NCBI GenBank assembly: GCA_008632985.1 | Contig: QPGO01000296.1 | Span: 1-64,000 of the forward strand | Direction of reading: 5' to 3' | DNA: 64,000 bases | Origin: Psammoneis japonica | Lineage: Eukaryota | Shown here: positions 30,241 through 58,371 of the stretch, in pieces | Layout of the letters: every line of letters starts with the position of its first letter | How positions within the stretch are numbered: the stretch's first letter is position 1 | Position numbers and translations under genes: made by a program | Notes under the pieces: model-generated | Told to the model about the DNA's origin: nothing | Database searches by the model: none | What the model saw: the letters and a program-made list of their open reading frames with translations, nothing else

Positions 30241-30279
30241 AGAACCTCCCCCGGCTGGAACTCGCATCACCCCTCACTG

Positions 30280-32445: not shown

Positions 32446-32559
32446 CAAAAAAGAAAAAAGAGAAAATCTGTTGGCAGCGCTGCCAGCGAAACATGTTGTT
32501 CACAAACACATGCCTCTGACACAAAGAACACTTTTCCACGATGCTGTGTTGCTGAGATT

Positions 32560-35404: not shown

Positions 35405-36386
35405 CTAAAGAAATGTCACAACAAATGTTGCAAAATGTCCTAATTTCTTAATGGGTTCCCATTCATCTAAGTATTCTACTTCAAAGGGTGTGTATCCCAT
35501 CATAATGGAAAGCTGTGTGATGTTCGCCACTGCTTGGAAGGCAAGGTGATGCGTTAATCGATCATGACGATACGTTCTTGTCATTATTTGGAAGCGCTTG
35601 AACCAACCGTTGACAGCTTCGTGGCGGGCGCGAGCGACGGTCTTCATGTATTGGTCGGCATTGCGCAGGCCGGTCGGGGCCACACAATACTGGTGTCCGT
35701 CACTATATGCCCCATCAGCTAAGTAAAACTCTCCATCTTGAAGTTCATAATTGATCGCCTCTCGTGCTATACTCAAATCAGGAATGCCAGCTGGGTAGGG
35801 GCCATTCACCCAAACTATCCAACCTGTCTGAATACATATGGCGATTTCGTACCTAAGCCCTGCGCCGTTGAATTTATGCGAATACCAGATGGGATCGAAC
35901 GGCGATGGTTCGTTGATGCGAAAGTCAGTGCCGTCCACCGTCACCTTGCATACACTGCCATTATCATCCATAAACCTGTTCTCCCAATCAATCTGTGATG
36001 AAATTATGGCGAATCAAATATCAGTACATTGATTTTCAAAGAGAAATTGGAGTCATGGTACGTACCAAGTTCAAATTCGCAATTAGCGCTATCCCAACCC
36101 ACACCCATTTTCTCAACGTATCCTCGTGTATGCCACCGCAGATTCTGGCCATTATGGTTTCAGTGTCATACAGTTTCAGAAAACAAAATGTGTACAATAA
36201 ATGAATGGGTAGAAATCCGCGTGGGATGTTGCCATCATCTTCAAGAAGGCCCCACAACTCACACACTACGTCTCGCGGAGAGCAGAAGTACGAGGCAAAT
36301 CTGCGGTTCCAAATCCGTTGTGACCTCATCGGCCTCTGGATGACTGTCCCCGCAAGATAATCTACTGTGGCTTTGGGTAGGCGCAT
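35405..36386 (-). CDS. DDE transposase (DDE_Tnp_4, Harbinger/ISL2EU-like), apparently intact; intron 35993-36065
   Basis: VTVDGTDF, YSHKF, LADGAY and ARARHEAVNGWFK. GT-AG splicing joins the two ORFs in frame (LNL/IDWENRF). Confidence 0.85.
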
Positions 36387-36587
36387 TTGTATGGTGAGTA
36401 ATATAGACGTGTGTTGCGCGTATGATGTTTTATGTTATATGCTAACAAGATTGCTGCGGCGCCAGTTCCGTGCAGCAGTGTTTTTGTTGCCGTATCATAG
36501 GTGGATTGATGGTCGGGTAGGGTTCTCATTCGTTTCCAACGTCTAAAAACAATGCTCTGATGTTAGGCCTTTTAGAGAGATTCCCTT

Positions 36588-37068
36588 CGGGAACGCTTTT
36601 GGTGCGGTTTCGGAACGCTTTTGGTGCGGTCCCGGAACGGTGGAAACACGGGAATGATGAAATGCCTATTTCGTCGAATGGTATTTCCGTGTTGGAGCTA
36701 TTGGCGGTTGTTATAGATATGGTTTAGTGTCAAACAATACTAGTAGTTACAATAATACTTTATAGTTCAACTTATAGCCACTGTAAATCAAAATTATTGA
36801 GACTTCTAACAGCCGTTCTTTTTCTTAGAGAAAATGGTAACCTGTTTTGACGGGTGTACCTTTTTGCAATAAATCCATCTAATCTGTTAAACTTTTACAC
36901 TATTGTGCCATACTCAAATAGTTCTAACAATAGTGCACTAATTACAATGCATCATATGTCTCATTGCCAGATTAAGAGGCTCCAAAGTTTGATTTCCGCG
37001 CGAATTAGTGTAATCGAGAACGTTCTCGGAACGGTTTTGGAACGCTTTTGGAACGCTTTTGGAACGGT
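36588..37068. repeat. Two clusters of GGAACGCTTTT-like motifs between the divergent transposon ORFs
   Basis: Tandem copies at 36588-36640 and 37017-37068. Confidence 0.6.
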
Positions 37069-37279
37069 ATGCAAGGGAATCTTGAGCTCCAATACTTCAC
37101 AATAGTCCCCCCCGATAGGCCTTTTTTTGGTTTTGGCGGTTGTAGCAATTTCAAATTTGCCGGGACTTGTATGTGTGGGATTGACTGTCCCACATAGAGA
37201 GTTGAGACGGTCGTGAACAATTCAAATCGGAGTTCGGGATTCGATGCGAACCTTGCCGTAGTGTGCCGAGTAAGCAACA

Positions 37280-37643
37280 NNNNNNNNNNNNNNNNNNNNN
37301 NNNNNNNNNNNNNNNNNNNNNNNNNNNNNNNNNNNNNNNNNNNNNNNNNNNNNNNNNNNNNNNNNNNNNNNNNNNNNNNNNNNNNNNNNNNNNNNNNNNN
37401 NNNNNNNNNNNNNNNNNNNNNNNNNNNNNNNNNNNNNNNNNNNNNNNNNNNNNNNNNNNNNNNNNNNNNNNNNNNNNNNNNNNNNNNNNNNNNNNNNNNN
37501 NNNNNNNNNNNNNNNNNNNNNNNNNNNNNNNNNNNNNNNNNNNNNNNNNNNNNNNNNNNNNNNNNNNNNNNNNNNNNNNNNNNNNNNNNNNNNNNNNNNN
37601 NNNNNNNNNNNNNNNNNNNNNNNNNNNNNNNNNNNNNNNNNNN
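37280..37643. other. Assembly gap
   Basis: N run. Confidence 1.
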
Positions 37644-37734
37644 AAGTGTCGCCACATGCTGCACTTTGTCAAATGAAACAGAATGCACTCTCATGTTGCT
37701 CTTTTTTTCTCTTGACTGTTGTCCACTTGTTTCA

Positions 37735-38380
37735 AAAGGGGAAGACCTCGACATGGATGAGGACGAGCTCTTAGCCGACGTCGGCCTGCTGTCAGCCAAG
37801 GAAACTGGCAGTTTTGCAGCTGTCGCCCCCACTGCTTTGGACCCCCCAGCATTTGAGGACGACCAGACATTCAAGCCCATGGTTTTGCAGGCGACCTGCA
37901 AGGATTCTGTCAACAAGACAGACCATGTGGTGCTGGTGATTGTAGCTCCCTCAGGAGCATGCACTGAGGACCTTTCTAGCTTCAAGCTCGCGGTGACGGG
38001 TGGCGGTTGGTTTTTACAGTGCACCTCCGAGTGGCCGGGTCACAGCATGGACATGGACTCACTCCATGCTGTGCTGGTGGAGGAGGCACAATCCCAAGGA
38101 GACCAAGAGCTCAGGGATGTGCACAAGCGCCTGGAGGCACTTTCGGATCAGTTGTCCTCCATGAGGTTGTCAGACAGCGATGTCTTGGCGTCAACAGCCA
38201 CTGTTCCTTTGCCCATCAAAGTGTCGAAAAAGATCAACAAGGTTCATCTTTTGGGGGGCAAGGATGGTTCAAGAATTGTGTGTGTTGACCTCAAAGCTGA
38301 GGACTCAACATGCCGCTCTATGGAGAGCCCCAAGGTTGTGTTGATTGACGGCACTACTTGCATGGCGAAGTGGGGTGCGC
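37735..38380 (+). pseudogene. Putative second (accessory) ORF of the Harbinger-like element, TpA-converted
   Basis: Long protein-like frame inside the TIRs, divergent from the transposase and almost Tyr-free. Confidence 0.5.
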
Positions 38381-38722
38381 GGCGTTTCTTTTCATTTTAC
38401 ATTGTTTTAGTTTTCACAGCAGCAACAAGGACAAGTGTGGCGGCTGTCATTAGAAATGCCAGCAGTTTAGAACATTAGTTTAATTGCATTGTTCTTACTT
38501 CTTAGCACAGCAGTGTCTTTACGTCTTAGTTTCAATCCATAAAACATCGTTGACAACGACACCGCGTAGCCTCCGCTGTTGGCTACATCGATGCAGAGTA
38601 CGGGCTACCACCTCGGCACCGCAGTCGGCAGCATCGGCTATCGGCATGCGTGCTGTTCGCACGATCCTGAAAATGCGAGAAAAACAGGGGAAAATGAAAA
38701 TTTCGATTTTTCACGCAACTCC

Positions 38723-39016
38723 CAGATCATAAATCTGCGCATCACTTTGTGTCACCTTGGCATCCCAGTCCATGAAACATGTCACATGTTCGGGGACAAC
38801 AAGTCAGTTGTGGACAGTGCCACCATCTTGCACTCCAAGTTACACAAGCAACACACCACCCTCTTGTTCCACCATGTGCGTGAGGTGATTGCTCCTGGTT
38901 TCCTCAAGCCTCATTTCATCAAAGGTTCCCACAACCCAGCTGACATTCTCAGCAAGCACTGGGGACACTCTCAGGTCTGGCACCTCCTTCATCCCCTGAT
39001 GTTTTTGGAAAGTTGA
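38723..39016 (+). pseudogene. Copia RNase H C-terminal fragment
   Basis: QIINLRITLCHLGIPV..MFGDNKSVV..FHHVRE..NPADILSK; purine tract GGGAGGAG at ~39076. Confidence 0.85.
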
Positions 39017-42000
39017 TCCTGAAGCTTTCAACCAATCTTGCCTTGAATCTGTCACTGTTGACCCCTCAAGCAAACTGGGAGGAGTGACAGGATTTGAACA
39101 AGATTTTAGTTTGTCACACACAATTGTGTGTGCTCTTGGTTCTGCATGCAGTGCATGATGCAGTTTGCTTTTGAGCCACATGGCTCACAAGAACAACAAC
39201 AGCAGCACCAACATCATGACACTGGTCTTTTGGCTCCTGCAATGGTCTCTGCATGGAGACTCATCTTCCATTTAGACAGCAGCAAGGAGTCATTGTTTTC
39301 TTTCACCCCAGTGATCTTCATTTTCTGTCAAGACTGACGATGCCCAAACCAACCACGGCTTTTCAGCAAGCAGCAACTGAGCCCCCATCACCCTCTTCTC
39401 AAGCAGCAAATGCAACGGATCCTCCTGCCATGCCAGCGACTCTGCGGTTCACCACTTGGCCTTGCAGCACATGCAACACATGTCATGCCTTGACTCATTG
39501 ATCTTTGGACAATCATCCAAAAGAGCTGGCGTGACTTTTTGTGCAATGGACCACACTTCCTTGGGTCTCTTTCAAACCTCACGCAACAAATTGGCACAGG
39601 CCAAGCTCATTTGAGCATCCTCTGGCCATCACTTGCAGTGCCCCACAAACCAAAACATTGCCTCCTCATGTTTTCTGTTGAGAAACGCTTCTGCGGCATG
39701 GTGCTGGGCTGTGTCCTTGAACAGGTCACATTTCTGGCTCAACTTCTTTTGCAAGTTTTCACCCTTGATGCAGTGCGTCAATGGCGGATTGACCAAATGA
39801 GCCTGTGGCAACAAACTTGCATCTTCAGTGCTTGTTGCTGGTTTGCAGACAAGCAGTGCATGGACAAGCACCGGGTGTCATTTCACATTGTTTGAGTCTG
39901 GCAATGGACTGTTGAGAATCACACCAGACTCACCATTCAGTGCATTTCCTTGCTCACTCTTGAGTTCTGTGATTGTCACAAGCGTGGATGTGGTGATGAC
40001 ATCTTCGTTCTCCACTGCCATTCTAAATGTGAGGGGCACAATCTCTCTGACACACCCTGGCCAGATTTTGGAGAGAAGAAACCATCAGTCAGATGATTGT
40101 GATTCATCCCACAGATGATCCAGATGATTGTCACTGTGCAATGTGCGTGTGCACATCATGCATGAGTGGAGGCTTGACCGAGTTGCCCCCAGGTCATCGT
40201 GTGAAGTTCTTTCTGTTCTTTGGGTGTTGTTCATTGCACTCCACTTCAGCCACAATTCTTCTTTCACAATTGTGACAAGAGAAGGTTGGTTGTTGTTTGC
40301 TTTTCTGCAGGCTTTGTTCCTTTTGGGAGACAAAAACACAAGGACAGGAAAGCTCGTCAAGCACCACCAACCCCCACTCTTTGTTGGGCAGAGTTGTGAG
40401 AGATGTTTGGCGACATGGGCAGAAAGCAGTCAGTTGAACATGAGGCTCCATGTGGTGCGGAATTTTCTTGTCAACATGGGCTTGAGCTGTGGCATCACAC
40501 AAACACACTCTTCCTGTTGCTCTCCCCCTGTGGAGTGCAGCGGGTGTGGCAAGCAAAAAGAAAACACAGCTCCCCCGCGATGCTCCTGATGGAAACATTT
40601 CTTGGCCCAGAAGTGCTCCCCCCCCTCCCCACCAAAACGAAAAAAGCATCTTGTGTGTGGTGTCTCCTTGTCATCAGCAATGCAGCCAAAATGTGCAGGA
40701 CCAGTTGGCATCCAGAGAAAGATCCCTGTGGTGTTGTGATCACAACATGAAAAGGCACACCAGACACTTCAGTGCTGACATTGTTGAGTGAGCATGTTGT
40801 GCCTTGCACACACTCCACAAAATGCTCCTGATGAGTGCAGCAAGTCCCATCTCTTGTAAAATTGTGCTGCGCGGACCAACAATCAGCCCATGATCCAGCT
40901 GTTGGCCATCTTGGGAGTCAAATCAAAGAACTCTCCCATTCCATGATGGAGCCACCTACACTTGGAGTTCACAGACCAAGGACCGGAGTGGCCCATTGGC
41001 ATTTGTGCTGCCAACATTTTGTCATTGTGACTGTTTGATGTTTCTCACTGTTTCCTTGTTTTCATCATGAAGGTTGGCTGCTGGAGCTTGACTCTTCTTT
41101 GATCTCTGTCACTCCCCATCAACCTGACACTTTGAGTGTTGCTTGTGCATTGTCTCTCTTCAGTGGCTTCTGGCTTTGCCATCAAATGGGCCCCCCCCAT
41201 GGCCGACTCGAGTCGCCATTTTTTGTGCACTTGTGTGACAAGAAATGCTGCACACTTTGTGTCCTTGTGACATTCTTGTTGCTCAATGACAGCTTGTTTT
41301 CAATGAGGGTCATCAAGACTGTCACACAACCACACAAAGTGTTCTGTGCCAGAGCTCTGCATGTGCAACACGCCATCATCAACTCTCCTCCAACAACTGG
41401 CCCAGTTTCCCACATGCTTTGAGTTCAATCACCAGTTGACTGCCCTCTGTTGTTCTCTGACTCTGCTCTTCTCTGGCGGCTGGTGCACCTGCCTGAGCCC
41501 TCTGGCTGGTTGTGGTGCAAGCCATGAGTGCCAGAGGACCTGGAGCTGAAACTTTCAATTCCGAGAACTCGGAAATGGAGCTCTTGCCAGAGAGAGCTGC
41601 AAAGGGCAGGCGGCATGGGCTGCAAGCAAAAACAATCTCTTGACTCATCAACGTGCAGCACAATGTTGATGAAAGAAAAGAATGAGATTGGGGTCCAGGT
41701 GCTTGCAGCCGTGAGAACTGCTTCTGCGGCATGCACAATGCCTCCGGAGCAGCAACACAAAACAACCCCCCCACTCATGCAGGTGGGAAGCACAGACCAC
41801 CAATGCAACAAGACAAGCACTGCGTGAAACAGGGGACACCAGAGCAGTGGGCCTGGTGTGTTGATGTCATGCATGAAGCATGCACCATGACATCACACTC
41901 CAAGATCATTGTGCGGAGCCAAAGGAGTTTTTTGTGGTCAACCATGATGAACATGCAACGATTCTGACCGCAACAAGCAAGTTTGTTCTGAACGGCACAT

Positions 42001-44315
42001 TGTGGAACTGCAATGTGTTCTTTTCCTCATTGAAGAATGTCAGTTTTTTGGTTGAAAACAGTGTAAAACATCTTGTCATCGGCTTGCAAACATGAAGGAC
42101 TGCTGCAAATCAAACATCTGAGGAGCCACTCCCTGCCAGGAGCCTCAGATGACTAACTTAGACACACATTGCATCAACAATGGATCTCTGAGAGGTGCCA
42201 CACAACTCAGAGACTTGCTTCCACTGCTTCAGATGGACAAGCCCGGTCTGCCACAACCTCCAGCCCATCAGCTTCCGGCGTCTCAAGTGCTTGTTGAACT
42301 TTTGTGTGCACTCAAATCACCCATGTTCATTGCACATGAGGACTCATGACAAGCAGCAGTCAACATGATGATTGTTCACAATGACTCTTGCTGCAGTCTG
42401 AGTTGATTTGGTTGTTAAGTTGGGCAACTGGCAAACCATTTCCAGGTGGATCTGTGTTTGTTTCTGCTCAAAGTGGCCATCCCAGAAAGACAGACACCTC
42501 TCCCTGTCATTCGCTGTGCGTGCACAAGTGAGTGAACATGATTGCACCTGATGCACTCCTCCCTGGAGCTCAGAAACAGCGTTGCCGGTGGATGCACCTG
42601 TGGCAGAAATTTTGACAGACAGCAAGAAATGTGTCAGCAAAAGTGTGATGATTGACAGTTTGAGCAGTGCTCATCAACCACTGTCCTTCCTGTGGGTTCA
42701 ACAAAGACATTTCACATGTGATTGCCAATCAAATTGAAACATTGATGATGACGTGTCTGAATGGTCACCACGCTCGACAGCAACTTCATGCCACACAAAA
42801 TCACGAAGCACGGTGGTGCTTGACCAACCTGCGTGAGCATCCGGGGGCAGCTCCATCCACACTGCCACTTTCATTGAATCGTTCAATGAACACATGCAAC
42901 CTTTTATGTTCTTTGGCCATGGAGGCATTCACAACCTTTGATTGGATGGAGGCAACAACAGTGACAAAGCATGAGAAGCACAGCAGTGTGAAAAAAAGCA
43001 TCTGAAGGAAAAATTCGAGTGGCAATTGCCACACCACATGTTTCTCACATGATTCAGAAAGATGCTGCAGATGCAATTGCCGCTGGATTGTCAATGTTGA
43101 CGCCGCCGCAAACGATTTCCTCACCATGGTCAATGTCATTTTTTCTCGTGCAACGTGCAAAAAAATGTTTTAGTTGAATTGCTCATCTGCAATGTCCCTC
43201 CTACGTAGAAATTTTACGCAGTGCGAGTGAACGAAACCAAAACCTTCCGTCTTCCGGCCGTGCCGCATTGGTCATGAACCCGACAGCGGCACTTGGTTGA
43301 ACCCCCACACAACCTCTTTCGACCCACAGCTGCACTCAACATGCTGTTCCATGATGACTGATTCCAACAAGAACGATTCATTGTCATCGCATCAAGGCCC
43401 ATCACCGCTGTTGGAACGCCTGATGCAACCCCAGAAGAACCCGTCTCGGACTGTTTCGTCCAACCAAGAATGGATCGCCTTTGCTGACAAGCCAACAAGC
43501 CGCCGCTGCCATCCATTTTGAGTCCAGCACAGCCAGAAGAAAAATTGGTGGGTCTTCAGTTTCATCCTGAGCTCTTGACACGATCCCGTTTGGAATGGGT
43601 GGTGGGTCTCACCCTGCAACACATGGAAATGGGTCAACGCATGGATGTGCCAATGCCTGAAAATGCAGAGGGGATTTGGTGTGTTCAAGTTAATCCAAAG
43701 CATCATCAGACAACTGACAAGGACAGTGACATTCAGCAAGAATTTGTTCTTGTTTGCAAAGTCAAAGACAAAAAATTGTTGACTCCAAGATTGGAGTTGC
43801 ATTGCGGTCAACTTGCAGGACGTGATGCAGGCTCTTGGTGGTGGAGCATGACTTGTGTGGATTCTCCATTGCCACTCAAATTAAATTTGATTCAAGGATG
43901 CCCTTTTCAGTTTGCGAGTGATGGGAATTGTCTTTCCTCAAGATCACCCATCAGAGCCATTGCCCATGCCACTTTCGGCTGGTCCAGCCTCAACAAGCAC
44001 AAAAGGGTGCTCGCAAGGCGCCCGGATGCACCTGTCAAGATTTGCTGCAGAATCAACTTGATCAAGACAAGTTGAAGCATTGTGTGATGACTGAAGTTGT
44101 GAAAGTGCCTTTGGAAAATGATGCTGATGATGATTCCGTGCAAGTTCTGCCACAGTCTGTGGGTGGTTGCCTGTTTCAGAGTTTTTCATGCAGTCCAAGT
44201 GGACGCTTTCTCTTGGTTCAGCATGTCAATTTGGCAAAATTGCAGAGCTCTGGGATTTGCATTCTTCTCAGAGCATCATGGTGGCCTCCTTGCCCGTGGA
44301 TGATGAAATCCCACT

Positions 44316-44673
44316 TGTGACATTTTAGAATGACTGTGGACATTTCAAGACATCCAGACTCTTAGAATTTCTACACGGCTGAGTCAGACATGAGAAACTT
44401 TCAATGCAAGTGTCAAACCTTCACCGTGAACCTTAGTGCAAGATCTACGAGAAAGACATTCAAAGAGTGTCTGTTTTCTTACGTGGCACATGTCCAAAAG
44501 CCACGAGATCACTTTTCTCGCAGATCACTTTTAGATCAGTTTTAGCTTGTAATTTCAACTAAGCACGAGTTAGCAAGACAACTCATTGCTGTTTTGCTGG
44601 CTTTTAGCACCTTGTGCTGATTGTCAGCAGTGAATTCTACAGATGGGACTAGCTTCCAAGGTAGAATCCCACA
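44316..44673 (+). repeat. 5' LTR of Copia 1
   Basis: Direct repeat of 49345-49702. Confidence 0.95.
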
Positions 44674-47600
44674 CACTTCCTCTGCGACCTGCTTCACAAC
44701 TTCGATTCCAAGCCAGCCATTGATCGAAACCAAGTCCTCTGATGATGGTCAACACCCACACTTCCGTTGCCTCATTGACATCTCCCAGGACCACTGGTTC
44801 TCCAAGGAACACTGACATGACTGCTGGATCTCCTGCTCCAGCTCCTGTTGGAGCTCCTGCTCCAGCTGCAGCTCCCGCAGCCACACCTGTGCCGGCTCCA
44901 CCAATCCCGCCAGCTCCTCCTGGAGGTGGTGGCAGTGGCAGTGGTGGTGGAGGCATCCCTCCAGGTGGTGGTGGCGGCGCTCCTCCAGTGCCTCCTGTGC
45001 CTCCTGTTGCACCCGCTGCAGGACCAATCTTTGCACTGACTCCAGGCCAGCACCGTCCTGATGATTGGATCGATTGTGGCTCCAACAAGAAGGTTTCCTG
45101 CGCCAATGCTCTGGCTTCTGTCATTGAAGATCTAGAGTCCAAGGAATGACTGGCCCAGGATGCCTTCCGGACATGGGCTTTCTGCATGAAGGCGGTCTTT
45201 ATTGCATTCACAATTGCCCCAGTCATCACAAGCTTCGTCGACACTGTGGCTCCACTGTTGTTGTTCACAGTGTTCACGTCACTCAACCTGCCAGAGAAGA
45301 ACTGGAAACGTGCATCTAAGTCAGCAATGACGTCGGGTGAATGGATCATTTTGCAAATCCCAGCTGATGGCATGACTGGCAGACGCAAACCATGACAGAA
45401 CAAGAGTCGACACTCACCAAGATGTGTCACTCCCAAGAAGAAGGGATGTCCTGCTCGAGTGGCCTGCAAGAAGGCTCAATGCAAAACAACCTTTCACAAG
45501 ACGGTCTGCGCCAACACCTCTGCCACCACGACTCTGTTCAAACGAGAGCCAAGGATGGAACCAGCATCCTGCGACCCCGACTCCTTCATCATTGGTGTCG
45601 ACAACCACGCAACATGCATGATGTTGAACAACAGAGCACACTTTGTTGGCAACCTGCATCCTGCAAACAAGCGGATCAAGGGAGCAGGTGGATGGCCAGA
45701 TGCAGAAGGAGAAGGTGCTCTCAAGTGGTGCATCGAGGATGACAACGGACAGATGCATGCCATCACCACATGTGACGCATTGTGCATCCCAAACTCACCC
45801 ATTTGCCTGCTCTGCCCCCAGCAGTGGATTCAGCAAGCTCAGGATCATCATCCTGAACCACACAGAATGACTTCCTGGAACCAAGATGACGGTCTCCTGC
45901 TCATGTGGGATCAAAGGAAGCACACAAGGCTGGTCCCTTGGACCAACAACTCCAACGTTGCATGCTTTCGTTCTGCACCCGGTTCCACAGACTGTCGGGC
46001 ATTTGCCACCACAGTCAGTCGAACATGCAGCCTGCCAAATGCACGTGACACCTCCAGATGACGAAAGTGACTCAGAGTCCGTGGACGCCGCGAATGAAGA
46101 AGAAGCCTTCACAAGTCCTGACGAGACAGGTCCCAATGAGACTCAAGGCACACGCAACAGCATTGATGAGGAAGTGCCGCTGTTGTTCAAACCGGCAGAT
46201 GCTGCACACAGATCCGACTCACCTGATGAGAACCTGAAGGATCTAGTGACCCCAGACATGCAACCTAAAATCAACCACCCCATCAATGTCATCCCTGATG
46301 ATGATGCCCTTGCGGCCACCAACAACCAAGGTGAATTGTTGCATTGGCACTGTCGCCTTGGACACCAATCATTCAAAATGATCAAGCTCCCAGCTGCGTT
46401 GGGTGTCCTTCCAAGATGCCTCCCAATGGTGAAAGACCCAAAATGTGCTGGCTGCCTCTGTGGTGCCATGGCCAAACGCCCTTGGCGCACCAACTCCAAA
46501 CGCAAATCGAACATGCATGTCACTACAAAGCCAGGGGAGGTCATGTCGGTGGATCAGCTTGAAAGCTCGACCCCAGGTTTCATCCCACAACTCAAAGGGA
46601 GACCTGCAAAAAAGTGATGCAGAGCAGCAACAGCATTCGTTGATCACTGTTCCAAGATCGGATGCGTGTTCCTGCAACAGTCACTTGCCTCCGATGAAAC
46701 CCTGAAGGCCAAGCACGCATTTGAGGCCTTTGCAAGACAACATCACGTCCAAATCAAACACTGTCATGCCAACAACGGCCGATTTGCAGACAACGCTTTC
46801 ACGCAAGATGGCAGCACAGAAAAACGAATCCGAGACCTGCAAGAACAAATGCGCAAGCAGCTGTTACATGCAAAAGCAAGATGGCCAACGGCTGTTGAGA
46901 TCAATCTCTGGCCCAGCGCATTGCGCAACTCCAATGAGATCAAGAACAACTTGCCTGGCCAACCAGATGGCAGCTCACCAATTGAACGATTCGCCTCCGT
47001 CAAGGTTGCTCCCAATCTCAAGCAACACCACACTTTCGGATGCCTCGTCTGTGCGCCAGACAACTGACTGCAGAGTGGACAGAGAGCACCCAAGTGGCAA
47101 TCAAGATCAAGGTTAGGAATCAACTTGGGACCATCACCAAGACACACCGGTTCAGTCAACCTGGTGCTCAACCTTGAGACTGGACTTACCTCACCGCAGT
47201 TCCACGTCCAATTTGATGACTTCTTCGAAACAGCAAGTCCTTCAGCAGGGAGTGCACCAACATTCTCACACTGGCAAATCGCATCAGGCCCAAGGAAGCA
47301 AAAGGCACCGAGATTTAACGCGTTCAAGCCTCAAAAGGAAGCAAGGGAGACTTGCTCCACTGCTCCAGCGCAGAACGCTTCAGCACTGGAACCCGACATT
47401 CCGCGACAACTCAAAGACGAAAATTTTCCAACTGCAGATGACGAGACTTTCGAGCCAGCAGCAGATGCACCACCTGAAGGCACCCACGAGACGGCATTGG
47501 AACAACCAAGTGTCAGCAGGTCCAGCAGAGTGCGCAAACTGACGCAACGCATGGTCGAAAGCCAGCAACAACAAGCAGCCGGCATCGCATCGTGTCAAGC

Positions 47601-49344
47601 AAATTACAGCAAGTGCTGCAACGCTGTGCACAAAGATGACTACAAGCTGCGAGACGACATGGACTCACATTTCGCCTTCTTAGCCAAAACTGACCATGAT
47701 GCCATGCATTTTGATCAAGCCATGAAAGAACCAGACCAAGACGGATTCATCAAGGCTTGCATCAAGGAGGTCAACGACCACATTGAGCGCAAGCACTGGG
47801 CACTGACACCCATTGAAGAGGCACCTGAAGGCGTTGACATGCTCCCTGCAGTGTGGTCCATGAAGAGAAAGAGAGATGTCAAGACAAGAAAGGTGCACAA
47901 GTGCAAGTCCAGGCTCAATGTGCATGGTGGCAAGCAAGAATTTGCCTTCAACTGTTTTCAAACTTATGCCACCGTTGTCAACTGGAACACCATCTGCTTC
48001 CCACTCATCCTGTCTGTCCTGAATGGTTGGCATGCTCGACAAGTTGATTTTGCACTTGCTTGTCCTCATGCCAACATCGAGCATGACATGTGTGTGGAGC
48101 TGCCAAAAGGCATTGAAACCAAACATGGAAATGGCAAGACTCATGTCTTGAAATTGTTGAAGAACCTGCATGGACAGAAACAAGCAGGCAGAACATGGGG
48201 TGAGCACTTAAGGCAAGGCTTGGAAAGAATCGGATTCAAACAATCACAAGTCGACAAGTGTCTCTGTCACAGAGGAAATGCCATTTTCCCACACTGTGTT
48301 GATGATGGCATTTTTGCCTCACCAGATGAGGCTGCCATTGACCAAGCTGTCGCGGATGCACACAATGAGAACTTTGATGTTGACGATCAAGGGAGCATTG
48401 ATGATTGTCTTGGTGTCAATGTCAAGACTCTCCCTGATGGGCGCATGAAGCTCACGCAACCGCATGTGATTGATCAAATTCTGGAGATGGTGAACTTGCC
48501 TCGGTGCATGCCGGACAAGCAAACTCCAGCTCCTGCATCCAAAATGCTGCACAGACACGAGAATGAAGACTCACATGATGGATCTTTTGACTGCAGAAGT
48601 GTGGTTGGCAAACTCAACTTCCTTGAGAAGTGCACCAGACCTGACATGGCTCATGCAAAACATCAGATTGCACGGTTCTCCAGCGACCCCAAACAATTGC
48701 ACGGCGAGGCAGTGCTGTGGTCATGCAAGCACCTGCGTGCAACCAGACATGAAGGTGTCTCATGCTTGAACCCGACAAGGACAAGTCATTGGAAGTCTAC
48801 GCGGATGCCAACTTTGTGGGCAATTGGAACAAGCTGACTGCCCCATGTGACGTCAGTGCTTCAAAGTTGCGAACCAGATGCGTCATCACCCACGCTGATT
48901 GTCCTGTGGTTTGGACATCTAAGTTACAGACACAAATTGCACTCAGCATGACAGAAGCCGAATGCATCGCACTGTCCGAGAGCCTCCGAAGTGCCATGCC
49001 TCTCATCAACTTTGTGCACGAGCTCCAAGAACATGGACACAAGGTGCCATCCAAAACTCCTTTGGTCCACTGCAAGGCCTTCAAAGATGATTCTGGTGCC
49101 TTGGAGATTGCAAGGTTGCCCAAGATTTGACCAAGAACCAAGCACTTCAACATTTCACTGCATCATTTCAAGGAACATGTTAGGAAGGGCATCATTTCCA
49201 TTTTGCCCATTGACACCACTGAACAAATTGCAGACATGGCAACCAAGCCAAATCCTCAGAATTTGTGTGCAAAGCTGCGCAAGAAGCTCCTCAAGTGGTG
49301 ATTTAGTTTCAAGTCACAGTTGCACCCAACACTTTCAAAGGGAG

Positions 49345-49702
49345 TGTGACATTTTAGAATGACTGTGGACATTTCAAGACATCCAGACTCTTAGAATTTC
49401 TACACAGCTGAGTCAGACATGAGAAACTTTCAATGCAAGTGTCGAACCTTCACCGTGAACCTCAGTGCAAGATCTGCGAGAAAGACATTTGAAGAGTGTC
49501 TGTTTTCTCATGTGGCACATGTCCAAAAGCCACGAGATCACTTTTCTCGCAGATCACTTTTAGATCAGTTTTAGCTTGCAACTTCAACCAAGCATGAGTC
49601 AGCAAGACAACCCATTGCTGATTCACTGGCTTTTGGCACCTTGTGCTGATTGTCAGCACTGAATTCTGCAGATGGGACTGGCTTCCAAGGTAGAATCCCA
49701 CA
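49345..49702 (+). repeat. 3' LTR of Copia 1
   Basis: Follows the PPT; direct repeat of 44316-44673. Confidence 0.95.
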
Positions 49703-51849
49703 CCACTGAGCTGCGATGCCTGCTCTCGTCATGTTTGGCGATTTTGGTTTCATCCCCTCAATGATTCTACCATTCTTTGTGCCCATGCCTTGGATGGTGG
49801 GGATCCGGCTTGTGAGGTTGAGGATGGCAACTTTTGGGATGCCTTGCACACGCACAACCTTCAAGTGGACGACAATGATGGCACAATGGCATTGGATGAT
49901 CCAACTCAACTGGCGGGTCTAGAGTGGCATCATGACGATGTCAACTTTGCTGAATTGGGTTTGATTGTCATGGATGAATGTCATTGGAAGGACCACATGG
50001 AGTGCAAATGGAAAGTTGCACGTGTTGGAACCAAGGCTTTGGTGTGGGAGCAATCATGGGAGGACCGTCACAATTCCCGGGGGCACCCGTCACTCGACTG
50101 GGCCCAAGGGGCCAATCGTTCATTTTGGGACCAGATCCTCATGTCATTTTCCTCAAGGGAGCCAGAGCATCTCCTTTGGGTGATTGTCCCTTTTTGGATT
50201 GACGGCGCTTGGATGCGGGTGCAACCAAACGTCTTTGGCATTGCAAGGCTCCAAAAAAGGAGACATTCCCAACGTTGCCTTAGAAGTGGGTGGTGTTGCA
50301 CCAATGGACCATGACAATGTGTTTGAATCGGTTGTCATTTCGCTGCCGGATGATGAACGTGTGCTCATGAGTTGAGAAAGCAACACGACACCAAGAAACT
50401 GCCATCTCACGTCACTCAAGGATCTCAGCGACCAAGTTGCTGCAACTGCCTTTCTGCATCCCCAAGTTGACTTGCTGGGTGTGACTAAAGAATTGGTCAT
50501 GTGTGAACACAACGATGGTGTCACCATGACAGCCAATCTGCATTTGCCCAAGGACTGTGATGGCACACCACGACCAATGCTCTTTTGGGCGTGTCCTCGA
50601 GAGTTCAAAAATTCAAAGGCTGCCGGACAAGTCAAGGGGAGCAAACACAAGTTTGCATCGGCGTCGTGGGCATTGCCGGTTCATTGGGCAGAAAAGGGAT
50701 GGTTCATTGTGGATGACTTTGCACTTCCAGTCATTGGAGAGGGCAAAGTACAACCCAACGACATCTTTGTTGATCAAATTGTGTCAGGCACCACAGCTGC
50801 CGTCGAGCATGCAACCAAGCGTGGTGTTTGCGATCCAACAAAATGTGCAGTGGGTGGTCATTCTCATGGGAGCTTCATGACATCCCATTTGCTCTCGCGT
50901 GCAAGTCTGTTTGCGGCTGGATTTGGTCACAGCGGAGCCTTCAATCGAACCTTGACTCCCACGTCATTTCAATCCAAAGACCGCAGCATGTGGGAAGCAC
51001 CCGACACACACATCAACATGTCGCCCTTGATGCACGTCGAAAAGCATTCCAAAAAAGACCGTGTCGGGAAACTTTTGTTGATTCATGGGAAGAATGATGA
51101 AAACAGTGGAACGCATCCAATGCAGTCTGAGCAACACTTCTCCGCTTTGAAGGCTTTTGGAATTGAATCGCGACTCTGCATGTTGCCGCATGAGCGACAC
51201 TCCTGCCGGGCCAAGGAATCCATTTTGCACATGGCATGGGAACAAGAAACATGGCTGGCAAGTTTGGAAGACAAAACATCTGGGAAAGACCAGGCTAGAG
51301 TTGCACCACCCACATGGAGAACTTTGATGTTGCAGAGTGGATCTCTTTGCAGCAAGCATGGATTTTGGATTTTCTTTTTCTTGCTGCAGAGATTGCGCAA
51401 GCATGTGCAGATGTAGAGTTGGCAAGGGCAGCAGCAAGAGGTGGTGGATCAAACGGTGGTGCGGGTGGGTGAAGCACAAACATGTGCCAAAATTCTGCAA
51501 GGACAATGGCATGGAACACTTGTGTCACACCACACATTTACGCCACTTGTGGCATGCATTTTAGAAGCCTTCTTTTTTTGACAGCAGTCAATGGCATGCT
51601 GCGGATGCACGTCCTCGCCACAATGTGTCATTTGCACACTTTAAAAATTTTGCAGCTGATGGTGCTGTAGAGCTGCGGTGCAGAATGGCATGGACAAGAC
51701 ACCAGTCGTCTCAGCTCTGCACATGCCTGTTCCGATGTTGGTTGGAGGTTCAAGCAGCAACAAATTAATGCAAGACAACCAACCTCTGCCATGGCACCAA
51801 ATTGAAGCAACGGAGACTCTCTCCCGGGCACTTGCCAGCATGTTCATGC

Positions 51850-53900
51850 CTTGCACAAACAGAAATGGTTCCCTGGGCTTGACAAGAATGGTGAAATGCA
51901 CACTGCTCATGGGGTTGGTCGTGCGAGCATCAAGAGCCACAAGCCACTTCAAGGTGCAGAGTTGAAGAAACACACGGCAACGTGTTTTCCCCATGGACAT
52001 GTTCACTGTGTGCCCAATGTTGTTGAGCGAGCTCTGAAACACAAAAAAGAAACAGCTGGCCAGCTGGCATCAACCGGAATGCAACAAGGTCAAAAACAGA
52101 CCAACAAAAAGATGCAAAAGGCGGCAAAGGAATTCGAGGTCCCTGCCAGTGCAAAAATTTCACTTGTCTTTCCTGATTTCTTGGACAGAGATGACACCTG
52201 AAACACTCAGTGTTTCAGGTGTGAGACAAACAAACTGGTGCTGTTGTTGGGGTCAAGACAATGTGCCCATTCTGCAAATCAAATGCTCATGTGGAGCACA
52301 AAGACAGGGCGGGATGCAAGGACAATGTGAGGGCAACTGCAGGCCACAAGGAGAAAATCCCGCCAGTGGGGCCAATTGGATTGTGCAGCAATCAGACTTG
52401 TGGTGGACCAGTTGACAATTTGGAGAACCATGATTGCTGCTCGACGCACTCATTCACAGTCTGCAGTGAAGCCTGTTGGCAACAATGTCCAGAAGAGGTC
52501 AGGGAATGGTGTGACACCATTCTAAGAAAAGACGCATCATCCGGAGAAAATGGACAAACTTTGGTGGCAGAGCAATTGTGTTGTGAAGTGCTGCATGACT
52601 CAACAATTTTAAAAAATCTGGCAGACAAGATGGAGGAAGTGCACCAACAGGCTGAGCGCAGGGCGATTGCAGCATGTGTGGCTTTCACTGAATCCCAAGG
52701 TGACCCCAACAGCTTGCCTGATTTTGGCAGTGATGATTGTGACAAGTTGTTTTGACCACCAAGTCACGACACATTTGGCAGTGTGTTTGATGCAGTGTTT
52801 GAGATTGTCTTGCCCTTTCTACATCAAGACCTCTTCATGAGAACCCCAGGCTGATTTGTTCAATGGGACTCTGCTTTTGACTTTGCAAAGAAAGCAATGA
52901 ATGACACAGAGTCAGAAGAGGAGTTTAAGACAGTTGCCATTGTCTTTGGCGAGCATGGACACATTCTTTCTTGGGCATTTGCTCAAGCCAAGGGAAGCGT
53001 CATGTGCCAGCAACTGATGTGCTTCATCAAGAAGCTGTGAGCATCAAGGACAGATGGAAAATGAAGGCAACCACTGCATGAATGAAGTTGAGCATGGACA
53101 CAGTGATGTCTGCTGTGAAGGACTTGTTGATGCATGGGAACATTGGTTCCTCAAGCTGTGGCCAAAAGCGAAGGTGCCACCAATGAAAGATTTGTGGCAT
53201 GGGGAAAAAAGGTCACAGACGGCACTTGCGGAACTTCTCACAAGCTTCGTGTGTCATTCACAAAGGGGCTGGCCCAAGCCTGCCTTGCACATGATGAAGA
53301 TTCAAAGTGCTCAGTTGTCAAAAAGTTCAAGGAGGATGAAAATTGAAAGAGTGCACCAGGGGAAACAAGTCCATGTCGACCAAAGTGGCAATGTCGGCTG
53401 TGATGGATCAAAAGACGTTTGGGACAAAAGTGAAGAATTCTGTGCTGGAGCCCTCTGCAATGGCTGCCAATGTTCAAGATGCTTGTGAGAAAATTAAGGT
53501 GGAAGACAAGAGACTGTGACAAGAGGCCAAGGAATGAAGAGACGGACACTTGTCTTGCCTTTTGAAACCGTCGCCAAACGTGAGCCAAGGAACCGAGCTT
53601 GAGGTTCAGAATTTCATGCAGCACATTGAAAAAGGTTGTTTTGCCGACCCTCTTGGTGTTGATGACATTGACACAGAACTCTTGGATGATCCCCATCTGC
53701 ACTGTGAACAACTGTGAGGAACTTCCCCAGGCAAAAGTGTGAACAAGTGTGTCAACAGACTTGCGGCGGACACCGCCATTCACGGAGCACCTCGAGTGCA
53801 CAAGAGACTTTGGCTTTGAGCCACTTGGTTTGACATTGACAAAGACACCAAGCTGCATCACATTCTTGGAATAGAGAAACCACAAACTGTTGAGTGGTTC
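51850..53900 (+). pseudogene. Degenerate putative DNA transposase, family unassigned
   Basis: Fragments such as VFGEHGHI, KDLWHG..KVTDGTCGTSHKL..F and (R)GTS..SVNK.VNRL resemble a transposase core; many TGA stops and frameshifts. Confidence 0.35.
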
Positions 53901-55199
53901 CTTCATGAGATGTTGTTGGGAAGGAAACCGAACCTCTCTGAGTGTTCTGGCACGGCATTCCCCCCAAAGCTTGAGCCTGATTGTGATGAGCCCGTGGGGA
54001 TTGAGTTCTTGCCACACAAGCAATGGGACCGCATTGCAAATGATCTCAATGAATTGCAAGCAATCAACCTGTCTGAACAGCAGAAGTCATTGAAGGCAAT
54101 GTGTGCATCTCAGCCTGCTGCCAGTTCATCTCCACCTGAGTCGCATCCAAACAATGGTTTGATGATGAGCGTTTCCCACTTGTCACAAGCTGAGTTGCCA
54201 CAAGGTGAGCTTGCCCTGAATGCTGCTCAACAGGAGTCAGCTGCGGTGCTGCCACTGGCTGCATTGCAACAGCATGTGTCGCAATCTGGAGTGGTGTCCC
54301 AGAATGTGCTGGCGGTGACTGCTTTGCTGCAGGCACCATCACGTGTTTTGCAACAACAAGTTCACAGGCATTGTTGTCTCAAGATCAGCAGGTAGCTGGG
54401 GTTGCAAAATGTGCTGATCATGGTCAGCTGCAAAGCATTTGGTCTCGAAATCTTTGTGCAATCAAATGGGTCTCTTTGCTGGACATCTGTCTCAACCCAA
54501 GGGAGCCTCTGACATTTTGTCAAGATCAAATGTTTTTGCAGACATTGGTTTCTGCATCCAAAGTCACTAGCCTTGGTGAGGAGAAACTAAAAGCTGCAAT
54601 TGCAGCTGCTTGGAGGGAACAATGCTGTTGATTCTTTTCTGGCAATGGCACTGGCTTGGGAGGGCAAAATGTGACTAGAACATGTCACTGTTTTGTTGAA
54701 AGAGAAAGGCAATCGACTGCTTCAGATGCAACCAGGGCTTTCAAACAGTCAGCAACCCATGATTTCTCACATGGGCAGGCCGCAGAAGCAAATTTGACGA
54801 GAAGATGTTAACAAACCATCGCACGCTCAGTTGGGGGATCTGTTGAGACAATTGCCGGGAAGGAGCATCCGGAGCACCAAACAAGCCCGTGTGGAAGAGT
54901 TGCAAAAAAGAGTTTTAGGGAAAGCCATGAGACTTCAATTTGACACTGTAGATGACACTGCATCAACATCTCTCTCTTCCTCTCTTCTTTCCCTTTTTTA
55001 AACTTCAGGGGCGCCAGAAGGGCACCCCCCTTTTAAACTTTGCATCCACAAAAATCCCCAGACAGGGAGCTGCAGGAGTGGGAGGAAAGAAGGGGCACGT
55101 GAAACAGCACTCAGGGCATTTGAGAGATGGAAGTGGAGCAGAAGGAAAGGGGAGGGAGGAGAGAAAGCAAAGGGTGTGGGAAGAAGAGTGATGGACAAT

Positions 55200-56980
55200 G
55201 TTGCAACTGACAGTTTAGATGGCCCATTGGGAGGGGGGGAAGAGCGGTGGGAGCTGCCAAAGCAACCAGAGGAAAGCTGATTCCATGCACAATTGGCAGA
55301 TGGGAGAAGAGCAGATGGGGAGGCAAGAGCGCAGGAGAAGGCATTGAAGGAAGCAGAGGAGTGTCACAGGAAGGAGGGGTTGAGCCAAGGGGGTTTGGGC
55401 TGGGAGCATGGGGAGGGAGAGGAGGTGCCAAAGAGGAGCCAGTGGAAGAAGCAGCCAACAAGACCACCCAGGTGATCAATGGTTGAGGGAAGCAGATGTG
55501 TTCCACTGGCACTGAGGAATTGGATGGCAAGAGAGCCATCAGAGGAAGAGGTTGAGGGGCCTCAAAACTTGGACCTTGCACTTGCACAGCGTGCCTCAGT
55601 CAAAAGAGAAGATGAGGGGGAGGCAGACCAGGTGGAGGGCGAGGGGGGGCTTTGGGGACAGTGACGTTGATGGCAATGTGTTGATGCTGAGAAGGAATGG
55701 CAAGGGAAGCAGGGGGAGGGATGGCAATTCCTGCATCAGCTGGACAGAGAATGGGCCAATGCAGCAGAAGGTTTGCAGGTTTGAGGTGGACGTAGGTGGA
55801 GGAATGACAGAGCTTGGACAGGGGGGGCAAGAGTTTGTGCAAGGATGAAAACAGTGTCCCGTGTGCCATTGGAGAGCTTGGACTTGTCATTGCACTTGCA
55901 CATGAAGGTGTGGTCACCGCAGGCATCAAGGGAGGTGTGGCCACAGGGACAAGGAGAGTCAATGAGGGAGGAGGGAAGTGCTGGAAGATGCAGCTTGCGT
56001 TGGATGGCTGTGGTGCACTCATCAGAGGAGAGGCGGGAAGAGGCAAATCAGGAGGAGAGGTGGTGAAGCGGCAGGCTGGCAAGGGGCAATGGGAGGGAAT
56101 GGAGAGCAACTTGGATGGCAGGAGGAGCATCAGCAAGAGTGGCATGATGGTGTGTTGTTGGTGGGCATGATGAAGGTGGCAAGCAAGTCCAGGGAGCCTC
56201 ATTGACTTGACCAAGGTGGGAAGATTTGGAGCAGCCAATGAGGAATCAGAAGAGAGCACAGAGGCAAAGCAGCGAAAGAGAGTGTGAAGGCACAGGTTGG
56301 AGTGGGAGTTGTTCCAGGAAGAGAGAGAGAGAGAGAGAGAGATGGAAGCAGTGCAGGAGCTCAAGGCTGTCCCCAGAAGGGAGCTGTGCACCGTGACAAG
56401 TGAAGCGGAAGGAGAGCAGAAGAGAGATGAGGAAGGAGGGGCTGGCGGCAGCAGCAGGAACACACAGGCCCAAGCCACACCAACGGAGGCAGGGAGAAAG
56501 GCAATGGCCAGGGAGTGGGGAGGTGGAGAATCAGAGTGGGCAGAGGCGCAGTGAAGGAAGTGATGGATGAGGTCCAGAGGAATGGGTCAGGCGGGTTGTC
56601 AGGGTCAAAGTTGCAGTGGAAGTCGGTCCAAAGGAGGTGGGCAGAAGAAGGCACAAAGCAGTGTTTGAAAAGTTGAGCTTGAGTTTGCTTGTCACGTGGG
56701 CAAGGCAGGAGACCGTCAACCTCAGCAGAGAGGGAGGAAGAGACATCAGAGAGGAAGAGGAGTTTTGGCAAAAGCACAGGAGCCAAGAGGCTGTCCGAGG
56801 AAGTGGACAACCAGAAGTGAGCTCGGGGTTGTAGGAGGGGTCAACAGAAGGGTTCAGGAAGGCAAGAGCATTGCACAGGGAGGAGGCATTAGATTGGGAG
56901 AGAGAAGAAAGTGGGCTGGTGCCGCTGATGGAAATGAGGATCTTGTTGTCAGGGTGTCTTCATGGGCATGAGCACCCGGA
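55200..56980 (-). mobile_element. 5'-truncated non-LTR retrotransposon with restriction-like endonuclease (CRE-like)
   Basis: Minus strand gives DKQTQAQLFKHC, the Zn knuckle CPCGHTSLDACGDHTFMC..NGTRD and (R)PADAGI..IAINVT. Confidence 0.7.
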
Positions 56981-57189
56981 ACCAAGATGGCCCAAAAAGC
57001 CAAGCCAATTTTTGAGTTGACATGTGGCTAATCTTCACCATGAAATCTGGGACGGTTTGCCACTTTCAAACAGATGACAAAGATGTAGCATGGTGGCTTT
57101 TGCAACAATGCAAATGAACAATGCTTTGCTGGAGGCTGGTTTTGACAGTCTGGATGGCATGGCTGATGCCCTGCTTGATCATTCCGGTG

Positions 57190-57365
57190 GCTTCAAAGAT
57201 GCAACGACAGGCTCTGCGAGAACTGGGCCTTGAAAATGGCTCTTTCACACAGCAAGAGCTCAAGAAAGCCTGCCGTGCACGAAGCCTTGAAACACATCCA
57301 GACAAGGGCGGCTCACACGAAGCCTTCATTTGTGTTGCCCTAGCTTGCAAATTGCTCTCTGGTTC
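57190..57365 (+). pseudogene. J-domain (DnaJ) fragment, Tyr-converted
   Basis: LRELGL..ELKKACRARSLETHPDKGGSHEAF..VALACKLL, i.e. KKAYR and AY changed to Cys. Confidence 0.75.
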
Positions 57366-57583
57366 AGGCACTCACAAGTTCCAAAGCAACGAGCGTCTGT
57401 GGGAAAGTGGCCTGAATTCTGGGATTCGTCTGCACTTTCAGTGATTAAAAGCTGCAATTGCAATGCAACAATCAATCAGCAACTTTGCACCAAAAGTTGA
57501 GAGGTGACAATCGACACGTTAGAAAGACCATGAGCAGTTTTTATGAGCAGATTCAGCTGCCATCTAAAAGAAACGCGAAGTTG

Positions 57584-58368
57584 GGCTTGGTCTGCAGGTG
57601 AACCAAGCCGGATCGGATCGCCGGATCGACTCCTTCACAACCCATTAAAATGTTAGTCCATCGAGTCAAAAAAGTCGATCCGGGGCCTTTGTGGGACTGA
57701 TCCGCCATCTCGGATCGGATGTCGTGTCGAATTTGGAAGATTCCGTGCCGTCATCATGACAATGGCGCAACATCACCCGATTGTGACACAGGGCGGCATG
57801 AGATTCAGCCATGAGGGCACAGAACTTCCTCAGCATTGCAGCCTGAGTCTTTCCATGCTTGAAATGGAGATGAAAAGGTCGCGTGGCTGTGAAACAGCTT
57901 GTCAAACCGATGATGCCATAAAGATTTGTTGGAGAAACATTGAACAAGCAAAACAACAAGTGTTCATTGTGCAACTCGAAATTTCAATGCAAAAACATGG
58001 TGTCAGTTTCTCAACTGCAAAAGTGATGGCTTTTTCTTCCTTGTTGTTGGTGCAAACACTGAGTGACAATGATGCTCAATGATGTGGTCAAGCAAGCATG
58101 TAAAGCAGCAACAAAAGTGCAGTTCTGTCATCATGTTGTCTTGTCATGACAAGATGTGAAGCATCATGGCCACACTTGTTGTTGTTCGCTTTGTCAGTGC
58201 TTTGTTGTTCTTGGGAGTTTGGAATCTTGAAACTTGTGTCATTTTGCGACTCATCAAAATGTCGAATCCGATCTGTGATCCAATCCGATTCCACCTGTCG
58301 ACTGACAGAACTCTGACGTGATCCGATCCATTGATCCGACCCGGCACGGTTCACCTGTAGACTGAGCC
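57584..58368. mobile_element. Tourist/PIF-type MITE (785 bp) with GATCGG-rich subterminal motifs
   Basis: TIR GGCT(TG/CA)GTCT(G/A)CAGGTGAACC..GCCGG.TCGGATC; flanks TTG (left) and TTA (right). Confidence 0.8.
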
Positions 58369-58371
58369 TTA

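Follow-up and report, generated by a model that had tools for sequence, protein, structure and literature searches.

Is a gene copy hypermutated because it has a homologous partner, as in repeat-induced point mutation (RIP), or because of the place in which it lies? The question is raised by a 64,000-nucleotide stretch of the genome of the diatom Psammoneis japonica (contig QPGO01000296.1, positions 1 to 64,000 of the forward strand; hereafter, the window). At positions 43339-51284 of its plus strand, the window carries a near full-length copy of a diatom-type S9 serine-peptidase gene, which is split by a Ty1/Copia retrotransposon and almost devoid of TA dinucleotides. We consider it probable that this copy is a dead duplicate in a transposon- and satellite-rich domain of at least 43 kb, and that it was mutated in place by two context-specific transition processes targeted by location.

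Pfam assigned residues 139-294 of the C-terminal open reading frame (ORF) of this gene copy to Peptidase_S9, the catalytic alpha/beta-hydrolase domain of the S9 (prolyl oligopeptidase) family (PF00326; E=1.8e-18, 67 bits against a cut-off of 22.6). The ORF is 67-75% identical to 58 diatom homologues, the best of which come from Cylindrotheca, Fragilariopsis, Pseudo-nitzschia and other diatoms. The label 'CGEP-like' of the original prediction would place the gene in subfamily S9D, with the plant chloroplast glutamyl endopeptidase; the names given to the homologues in their source records go no further than dipeptidyl aminopeptidase/acylaminoacyl peptidase or S9 family peptidase. We searched three diatom homologues (including P0001 and P0005) against the window with tblastn. 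Residues 1-815 of the 816 of P0001 and 27-862 of the 867 of P0005 were placed collinearly on the plus strand, at 43339-44316 and then at 49682/49703-51281. Excision of 44316-49707, which comprises the Copia and one target-site duplication, preserves the frame (..DEIP-L-SCDAC..). The order of the tblastn matches, the preserved frame and a contig that joins 44230 directly to 49703 (described below) bear out the original prediction that the gene copy is collinear and in frame across the insertion. There is no room in the copy for intron-sized insertions relative to the homologues (tblastn) or to the contigs of a second copy. No database protein could be singled out as its parent from the mismatches that TA or CG decay can explain; among the 25 homologues listed of the 58, mismatches that such decay does not explain occupy 17-22% of the C-terminal columns.

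The S9 copy is a dead duplicate and is not under purifying selection. Comparison with the homologues (tblastn) revealed at least five frameshifts, and the copy fails as a functional S9 member owing to these frame changes, an in-frame TGA at 50373, changes at 97 of the 419 columns that 80% or more of the 58 homologues conserve, and the Copia within the coding sequence. Its C-terminus is 72-75% identical to the homologues, which are 81-90% identical among themselves. The Ser of what we take to be the G-x-S-x-G motif is retained, and the Tyr adjoining it is replaced by His (codon 50865). The frameshifts, the stop codon and the CpG decay described next were not part of the original prediction.

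The damage has a specific signature. The S9 copy (2,554 nt) retains seven TA dinucleotides (two in TTAA and one each in CTAC, CTAG, TTAG, CTAA and GTAC), an observed/expected ratio (o/e) of 0.043. Half or more of the 58 homologues share a Tyr at 30 columns; there, the window has His in 13 (CAY), Cys in 11 (TGY), Phe in three, Trp in two, Ser in one and Tyr in none. When the threshold is raised to 80% of the homologues, 18 columns remain, and they give the same picture (eight Cys, eight His, one Phe, one Trp, no Tyr). CpG decay is a damage component as large as TA loss in this copy: its CG o/e is 0.54, and 17 conserved Arg residues are replaced by His (7), Gln (5), Cys (3) or Trp (2). The ORF at 50376-51416 contains no Tyr, 22 His and 9 Cys, whereas Tyr makes up 1.05-4.4% of five normal ORFs of the same window (3.0-4.4% of four of them). 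The absence of Tyr in this ORF had been predicted; its length is 346 residues from stop to stop and not the 314 given then. This length is no evidence of selection, because the disappearance of TAA and TAG leaves only TGA as a stop codon, so that every one of the six frames comes to contain long ORFs. The original prediction had named, as findings that would count against it, a locus expressed and under purifying selection or orthologues naturally lacking these tyrosines; the copy is dead and the diatom homologues have the Tyr.

We compared the dinucleotide composition of the domain with that of the normal part of the window. The edge of the domain is near 20.5 kb. From 1 to 20 kb, in 2-kb bins, TA o/e is 0.5-0.8 and CG o/e about 1.0 in all but one bin, and most of 22-64 kb has a TA o/e of 0.02-0.15, a CG o/e of 0.2-0.6 and TG and CA ratios of 1.5-2.1. 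Per kb, the normal 20.4 kb contains 38.2 TA, 55.8 CG, 70.0 CA and 73.0 TG; the corresponding values for 33.4 kb of domain are 4.2, 26.9, 104.7 and 104.6. TA is thus ninefold down and CA and TG are 1.4-1.5 fold up. The balance is nearly even, with 62.9 TA and CG lost and 66.3 CA and TG gained per kb. Among the 16 dinucleotides, depletion is confined to TA and CG, and enrichment to CA and TG; the others shift by at most 15%. The domain contains two Copias, satellites, relics of HA (helicase-associated) and J domains, and the S9 copy, and the depletion extends across these classes. Damage to relics other than transposons thus extends beyond the S9 copy. Both HA and J relics have Cys or His where Tyr would be expected in these domains.

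The Copia within the S9 copy (5,387 nt, 44316-49702) indicates that TA was lost after integration. Its membership in Ty1/Copia is supported by two long terminal repeats (LTRs) with TG..CA ends, a 5-bp target-site duplication, and a gag-pre-integrase domain upstream of RVT_2. The LTRs of one element are identical at insertion. These two are now 94% identical, with 21 differing columns, nine of which have TA in the 5' LTR and CA (five) or TG (four) in the 3' LTR; none shows the reverse. The 5' LTR keeps 15 of 15 TA and the 3' LTR 6 of 15, close to the 5.0 predicted from context-specific survival in the domain. CpG-type changes are distributed differently, with three in the 5' LTR and five in the 3' LTR. 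The 5' LTR has CpG decay too, and at two sites the LTRs have decayed in different ways, so the 5' LTR does not represent an untouched consensus. Unless gene conversion or an assembly effect is responsible, the contrast between the LTRs points to a TpA process that has edges below the kilobase scale and is separable from CpG decay. Conserved Tyr columns of this Copia are now Cys (16), His (6) or Tyr (1), and those of the second Copia of the domain are His (9), Cys (8) or Tyr (2). The host gene copy thus carries the same TA to CA or TG damage as the retroelements, as had been predicted.

A second S9 copy was found in the one public sample with this DNA, which contains 95% of the sampled words of 49704-51416 and is possibly the source of the assembly itself. 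Contigs of this sample were placed on 43000-52000 at 80% likeness. Three of them (X1; 857-929 nt) show no difference from the window. Another (X2 record 7; 1,530 nt) covers 43344-43933 and 43990-44230 and then continues directly with 49703-49873, and hence represents a copy without the Copia. About 10% of its bases differ from the window copy. Relative to the window copy, it is 8 nt shorter at 43495 and one A longer at 50252, the places of two frame changes in the window copy. We compared 40 listed differences out of about 1,300, of which 38 fall in the S9 part (43386-43780). At 16 of these, CG in the second copy stands opposite TG or CA in the window, and at eight, TA stands opposite CA or TG. 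The remainder are seven transversions and seven other transitions, and the direction is reversed at only two of the 38. Applying the listed differences to one stretch restored three Tyr, two Arg and further consensus residues. With TA or CG present in the second copy at 24 of these 38 positions, the window copy is the mutated partner. The partial translation of the second copy matched none of the database homologues exactly. From the absent Copia and the divergence of about 10%, we infer that it lies elsewhere in the genome.

The spared partner bears directly on the two models of the original prediction, recognition of duplicates by homology or a hit on anything within the domain. As the partner keeps its TA and CG in the part compared, the pair was not mutated there on both sides as in RIP, and together with the depletion of all classes of the domain this favors targeting by position over recognition of duplicates. 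A paralogue such as had been sought to decide between the models is thus available in the form of short contigs, and over the part compared the homology model is disfavored. A RIP-like defence could still have hit the S9 copy as a duplicate, as it would the Copias, which duplicate each other, if lineages with a hit in the other S9 copy have since died out. The S9 copy is indeed a duplicate, most of the other recognizable content of the domain is repeated, and some diatoms encode DNMT4 enzymes related to the fungal RIP enzyme RID, to which the pages cited assign no function (PMC9998398). We nevertheless regard this explanation as unlikely, although it survives better than the others below. The direction of the listed differences (24 against two) opposes it, and so does the chemistry, as TA is destroyed here and not created. 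The two members of a young MITE-like (miniature inverted-repeat transposable element-like) pair, 97% identical, are barely altered. The LTRs of a single element keep 15 and 6 TA. The target of a comparable process in Bigelowiella natans, introduced below, is described as single copy.

The sequence context of the surviving TA sites indicates how the TpA process would read its substrate. Relative to the normal part, survival is 0 for ATAT, 0.01 for ATAC/GTAT, 0.02 for GTAC, 0.02-0.04 for ATAG/CTAT, 0.03-0.06 for ATAA/TTAT, 0.13-0.14 for GTAA/TTAC and GTAG/CTAC, 0.15 for CTAG, 0.38-0.64 for CTAA/TTAG and 0.68 for TTAA. RTAY tetranucleotides therefore survive at 0-0.02 of normal-part density and YTAR tetranucleotides at 0.15-0.68. 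This fits one rule that applies to either strand: the adenine of T-A-N is hit most if N is T, then if N is C, and least if N is G or A. As a Tyr to His change reflects a hit on the other strand, the rule predicts an excess of purines before such codons. This was observed in the S9 copy and both Copias pooled, with a 5' purine before 21 of 33 Tyr to His codons and 14 of 39 Tyr to Cys codons (Fisher p=0.033).

These data also allow the rates to be compared. At a TA survival of 0.11, each TA dinucleotide was hit about 2.2 times on average, and each CG 0.73 times. Other kinds of difference between the two S9 copies amount to about 3.5% (14 of 395 nt). We infer that the TpA rate exceeds the background by a factor of tens, and the CpG rate by a factor of about three.

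The strand outcome speaks to the stage at which the changes arose. Tyr became Cys or His in a ratio of 16/6 in one Copia and 8/9 in the other, so there is no consistent strand bias, and editing of cDNA or RNA was rejected as the sole cause. The near-equal numbers of TA to TG and TA to CA changes, the depleted host flanks and the changes made after integration argue for action on chromosomal DNA and not on RNA or single-stranded cDNA. An origin as a retrocopy or as a fragment borne by a mobile element, edited during reverse transcription or marked as new DNA, is in our estimate improbable, a little more so than the RIP-like defence. The lack of intron-sized insertions relative to the homologues and the contigs of the second copy would suit a retrocopy, and the LTR asymmetry, with the 3' LTR hit and the 5' LTR spared, could reflect exposure of the minus strand in the textbook scheme of reverse transcription. 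An editor of single-stranded cDNA or RNA would yield one kind of change only, whereas the two kinds are near-equal in the S9 copy (11 Cys, 13 His), in the 3' LTR (four and five) and in one Copia (eight and nine). Host sequence flanking the Copia, the satellites and other DNA of the domain are equally depleted. At the ends of the S9 copy, where no systematic search was made, we noticed neither a poly(A) tail nor a target duplication of the kind left by a retrocopy.

The same rates bear on a purely passive origin, in which an old pseudogene decayed neutrally in methylated heterochromatin with no special TpA process. CpG decay, expected in methylated repeats, is present. About 2.2 hits per TA against 0.73 per CG, with other differences at about 3.5%, are poorly compatible with this explanation. 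The usual GC-to-AT mutation bias, which is established knowledge and also appears in the preprint discussed below, would add TA, and the first 20 kb of the window speak against equal TA depletion in ordinary DNA. We consider neutral decay very improbable. An artefact of sequencing or assembly, through misread modified bases or a mis-assembled repeat, is more improbable still: the assembly of the window has three N runs, the sample may be its source and hence not independent, and reads of another copy could have entered the assembled 5' LTR, but contigs built independently from the raw run show no differences over 857-929 nt, the changes accompany frameshifts, a stop codon and a transposon insertion, and TA and CG are read normally in the second copy, which comes from the same run.

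Several observations weigh against targeting by location and have to be set beside it. A Harbinger/PIF-type DDE_Tnp_4 transposon at 35000-37280, within the domain, has normal TA, and its transposase ORF (35408-36013, minus strand) contains 5.4% Tyr. We assume that this island is probably a younger insertion into the domain. A MITE-like element occurs twice at the domain edge (20715-20953 and 23248-23487; 97% identical over 240 nt), and both copies are TA- and CG-rich amid TA-free DNA; on the same assumption, they may be younger insertions. The inner copy has three TA to CA or TG changes among eight differences (at GTAC, CTAC and ATAT) and no CpG changes. Under the context-specific survival of the domain, the probability that all 15 TA of the 5' LTR survive is about 4e-9. 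The process may track the transcription unit of the element, which excludes the U3 of the 5' LTR and includes that of the 3' LTR; alternatively, the 5' LTR may have undergone gene conversion by another copy, or the assembler may have used another copy's reads for it. Finally, the second S9 copy is known from short contigs of one sample, the comparison covers 38 listed differences in part of the gene, and purifying selection on an essential second copy could mask a symmetric RIP-like hit. Of the two models, the position model is favored in that all classes are depleted, but not in the form of a hit on anything within the domain, since the Harbinger-type transposon, the two MITE-like copies and the 5' LTR have normal TA.

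With these points included, mutation of the S9 copy in place by two processes still appears probable, and its steps can be outlined as follows. The first process would be ordinary CpG decay to TpG or CpA, with methylation as its presumed cause. The second, much faster per site, would convert TpA to TpG or CpA on either strand, fastest with a 3' pyrimidine (T-A-Y; RTAY when double-stranded). Such mutation would be directed by location or by its chromatin or silencing state, regardless of retroelement class or homologous partner. Chemically, the second process would most likely be the work of a TadA/ADAT-type deaminase that converts adenine in DNA to hypoxanthine, the explanation also put forward for B. 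natans; A to G change beside a 5' T is the outcome expected of adenine deamination by such an enzyme. Oxidation of thymine by mutant TET2 was considered as another source of T to C changes at TpA and received no support in the text cited (PMC11804724).

The closest known system is the TpA hypermutation described in mutation-accumulation lines of the chlorarachniophyte B. natans (Mettrop et al. 2026, bioRxiv 10.64898/2026.01.13.699255). According to this preprint, 231 of 302 new single-nucleotide mutations fell in two integrated viral regions, almost all of them A to G or T to C and all at TpA, at a rate of about 6e-7 per site per generation and in some lines only. The target is given as 186 kb, single copy and silent, an ADAT2-like protein is the candidate, and ADAR and TadA/ADAT enzymes are noted to favor a 5' U or T beside the edited A (10.64898/2026.01.13.699255). 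The text of the preprint contains no mention of diatoms. Our locus looks like a diatom case of this type of hypermutation. In both, the process hits only TpA, giving TpG or CpA depending on the strand (A to G and T to C, on both strands). In both, it covers contiguous tens of kb (tens to hundreds of kb in B. natans) with a sharp contrast to neighboring DNA. A trace of low TpA with high CpA and TpG is a further point of likeness to the preprint's account, and silent or foreign DNA as target and activity that is uneven and not constitutive would be others.

The differences are also clear. The host here is a diatom, a stramenopile, and not a chlorarachniophyte, and the DNA hit consists of LTR retrotransposons, satellites and a duplicate of a host gene, whereas giant-virus and virophage insertions are described in B. 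natans. Depletion is near saturation here (TA o/e 0.02-0.15) against a Rho of 0.45 in the virus region, CpG decay co-occurs, and the rate is derived from sequence, while it was measured in B. natans. The abstract, Results and Discussion of the preprint mention no 3' pyrimidine preference such as we observed.

Other systems fit less well. RIP, in Neurospora and other ascomycetes, likewise consists of dinucleotide-specific transitions that kill repeats and possibly duplicated genes and leave long skewed blocks, and it requires a sexual cycle and RID. RIP turns CpA into TpA, so that TA rises, and mutates both duplicates; here TA is destroyed and the second copy is spared in the part compared. APOBEC3 (G to A) and ADAR (A to G) resemble the process in that they cause deaminase-type, context-specific transitions that inactivate retroelements. 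Unlike it, they act on RNA or single-stranded cDNA and leave a one-strand signature within the element, whereas both strands and the host flanks are affected here. ADAR prefers a 3' G, and the preference here is for a 3' pyrimidine. Deamination of 5-methylcytosine, the cause of CpG decay in methylated transposons, would explain the CG to TG or CA half of the damage and leaves TpA untouched.

We can extend this tentatively. Diatoms may share with the chlorarachniophyte a TpA-directed DNA editing defence that is old and widespread in stramenopiles, alveolates and Rhizaria (SAR), is aimed at chromatin domains or transcription units, proceeds at about three times the rate of 5-methylcytosine decay per site, reads double-stranded DNA (hence the palindromic RTAY) and erases gene copies that land in the domain. 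We hold this to be possible, but on balance would not yet expect it to be true. If it were, the untouched U3 of the 5' LTR and the fully hit 3' LTR would mark the edge of a targeted unit.

In the literature searched, TpA-specific hypermutation of silent DNA appeared in only one 2026 preprint, on one chlorarachniophyte, and we found no report of TA to CA or TG hypermutation in diatoms. A long-term, saturated trace in a diatom suggests that the process is widespread among marine algae, and it would then leave its mark on their repeat landscapes, on the decay of their pseudogenes and on their composition. Within one genome, the S9 pair serves as a natural before-and-after control that shows which way the changes run, how fast TpA is lost relative to CpG and in which sequence context, and it argues for aim by place and not by homology. 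Beyond the B. natans case, the locus adds the context, the rate relative to CpG decay, a spared paralogue and the unexplained sparing of one LTR. In practice, domains with only TGA stops give false long ORFs in six frames, and gene relics within them elude domain searches. A general constraint on evolution by gene duplication, which the original prediction drew from this locus, does not follow, as the process matters only for copies that land in such domains.

Table 1 Position of the S9 gene copy, the Copia inserted in it and the depleted domain in the window
Feature	Position	Strand	Basis and remarks
TA-/CG-depleted, CA/TG-enriched domain	20500..64000		dinucleotide composition; continues past right window end
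S9 pseudogene, 5' part (~residues 27-338 of P0005)	43339..44315	+	tblastn; frames 1>3>2>1; 2 TA
Target-site duplication CCACT, left copy	44311..44315		sequence
Copia 5' LTR, 358 nt, TG..CA ends, 15 TA	44316..44673	+	LTR comparison
Copia internal region, degenerate; gag-pre-integrase and RVT_2 in several frames	44674..49344	+	Pfam
Copia 3' LTR, 358 nt, 6 TA	49345..49702	+	LTR comparison
Target-site duplication CCACT, right copy	49703..49707		sequence
S9 pseudogene, 3' part	49708..51284	+	tblastn; frames 2>1>3; 5 TA
In-frame TGA at column with Arg in homologues (CGA>TGA)	50373..50375	+	homologue alignment
346-aa ORF without Tyr	50376..51416	+	stop to stop; extends beyond homologue end (~51281-51284)
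Peptidase_S9 domain	~50790-51257	+	Pfam

The proteins closest to the inserted Copia are long diatom-type Copia polyproteins, with up to 54% identity. The second Copia lies at 58615-63900 on the minus strand, has its 5' LTR beyond the end of the window and is about 69% identical to the first at the nucleotide level, which is too divergent for a base-by-base test of shared versus independent sites. An X2 contig from the same sample, placed at window position 48108, continues a Copia-like frame with Tyr where the window Copia has His or Cys, so unmutated relatives of this Copia exist in the sample.

Pfam scans covered 89 of the 111 ORFs of at least 130 residues in the whole window and 93 ORFs of 75-129 residues from the domain. 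Outside the S9/Copia locus, the domain ORFs (49 of the 89 and all 93) included eight with a match at the thresholds used, three of them well under the curated cut-off, and these scans revealed only Copia, DDE_Tnp_4, HA, sub-threshold DnaJ and chance-level matches there. The HA relics are three repeats at 32261-33235 on the plus strand (E 1.5e-9 and 2.7e-8), and the J-domain relic is at 57118-57441 on the same strand (E 1.1e-5, just below the Pfam cut-off). The MITE-like element has an inverted terminal match near 21079-21105.

The normal left part of the window carries PPDK, GST/WW and HMG-box genes. Its one deviating bin (12001-14000; TA o/e 0.28, CG o/e 0.51) may be a small hypermutated patch among genes. 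Arrays of a 23-bp tandem repeat at 27445-29030, 31779-32540 and about 34000-35000 are almost TA-free. On the plus strand, the arrays at 27.5-29 and 34-35 kb are rich in T and the one at about 32 kb is rich in A, and they yield spurious long ORFs with weak Pfam matches (e.g., LbR_Ice_bind and BRCT_assoc). The plus strand of 55000-57000 is purine-rich, with about 40% G, about 16% C and a GC skew of +0.24 to +0.26.

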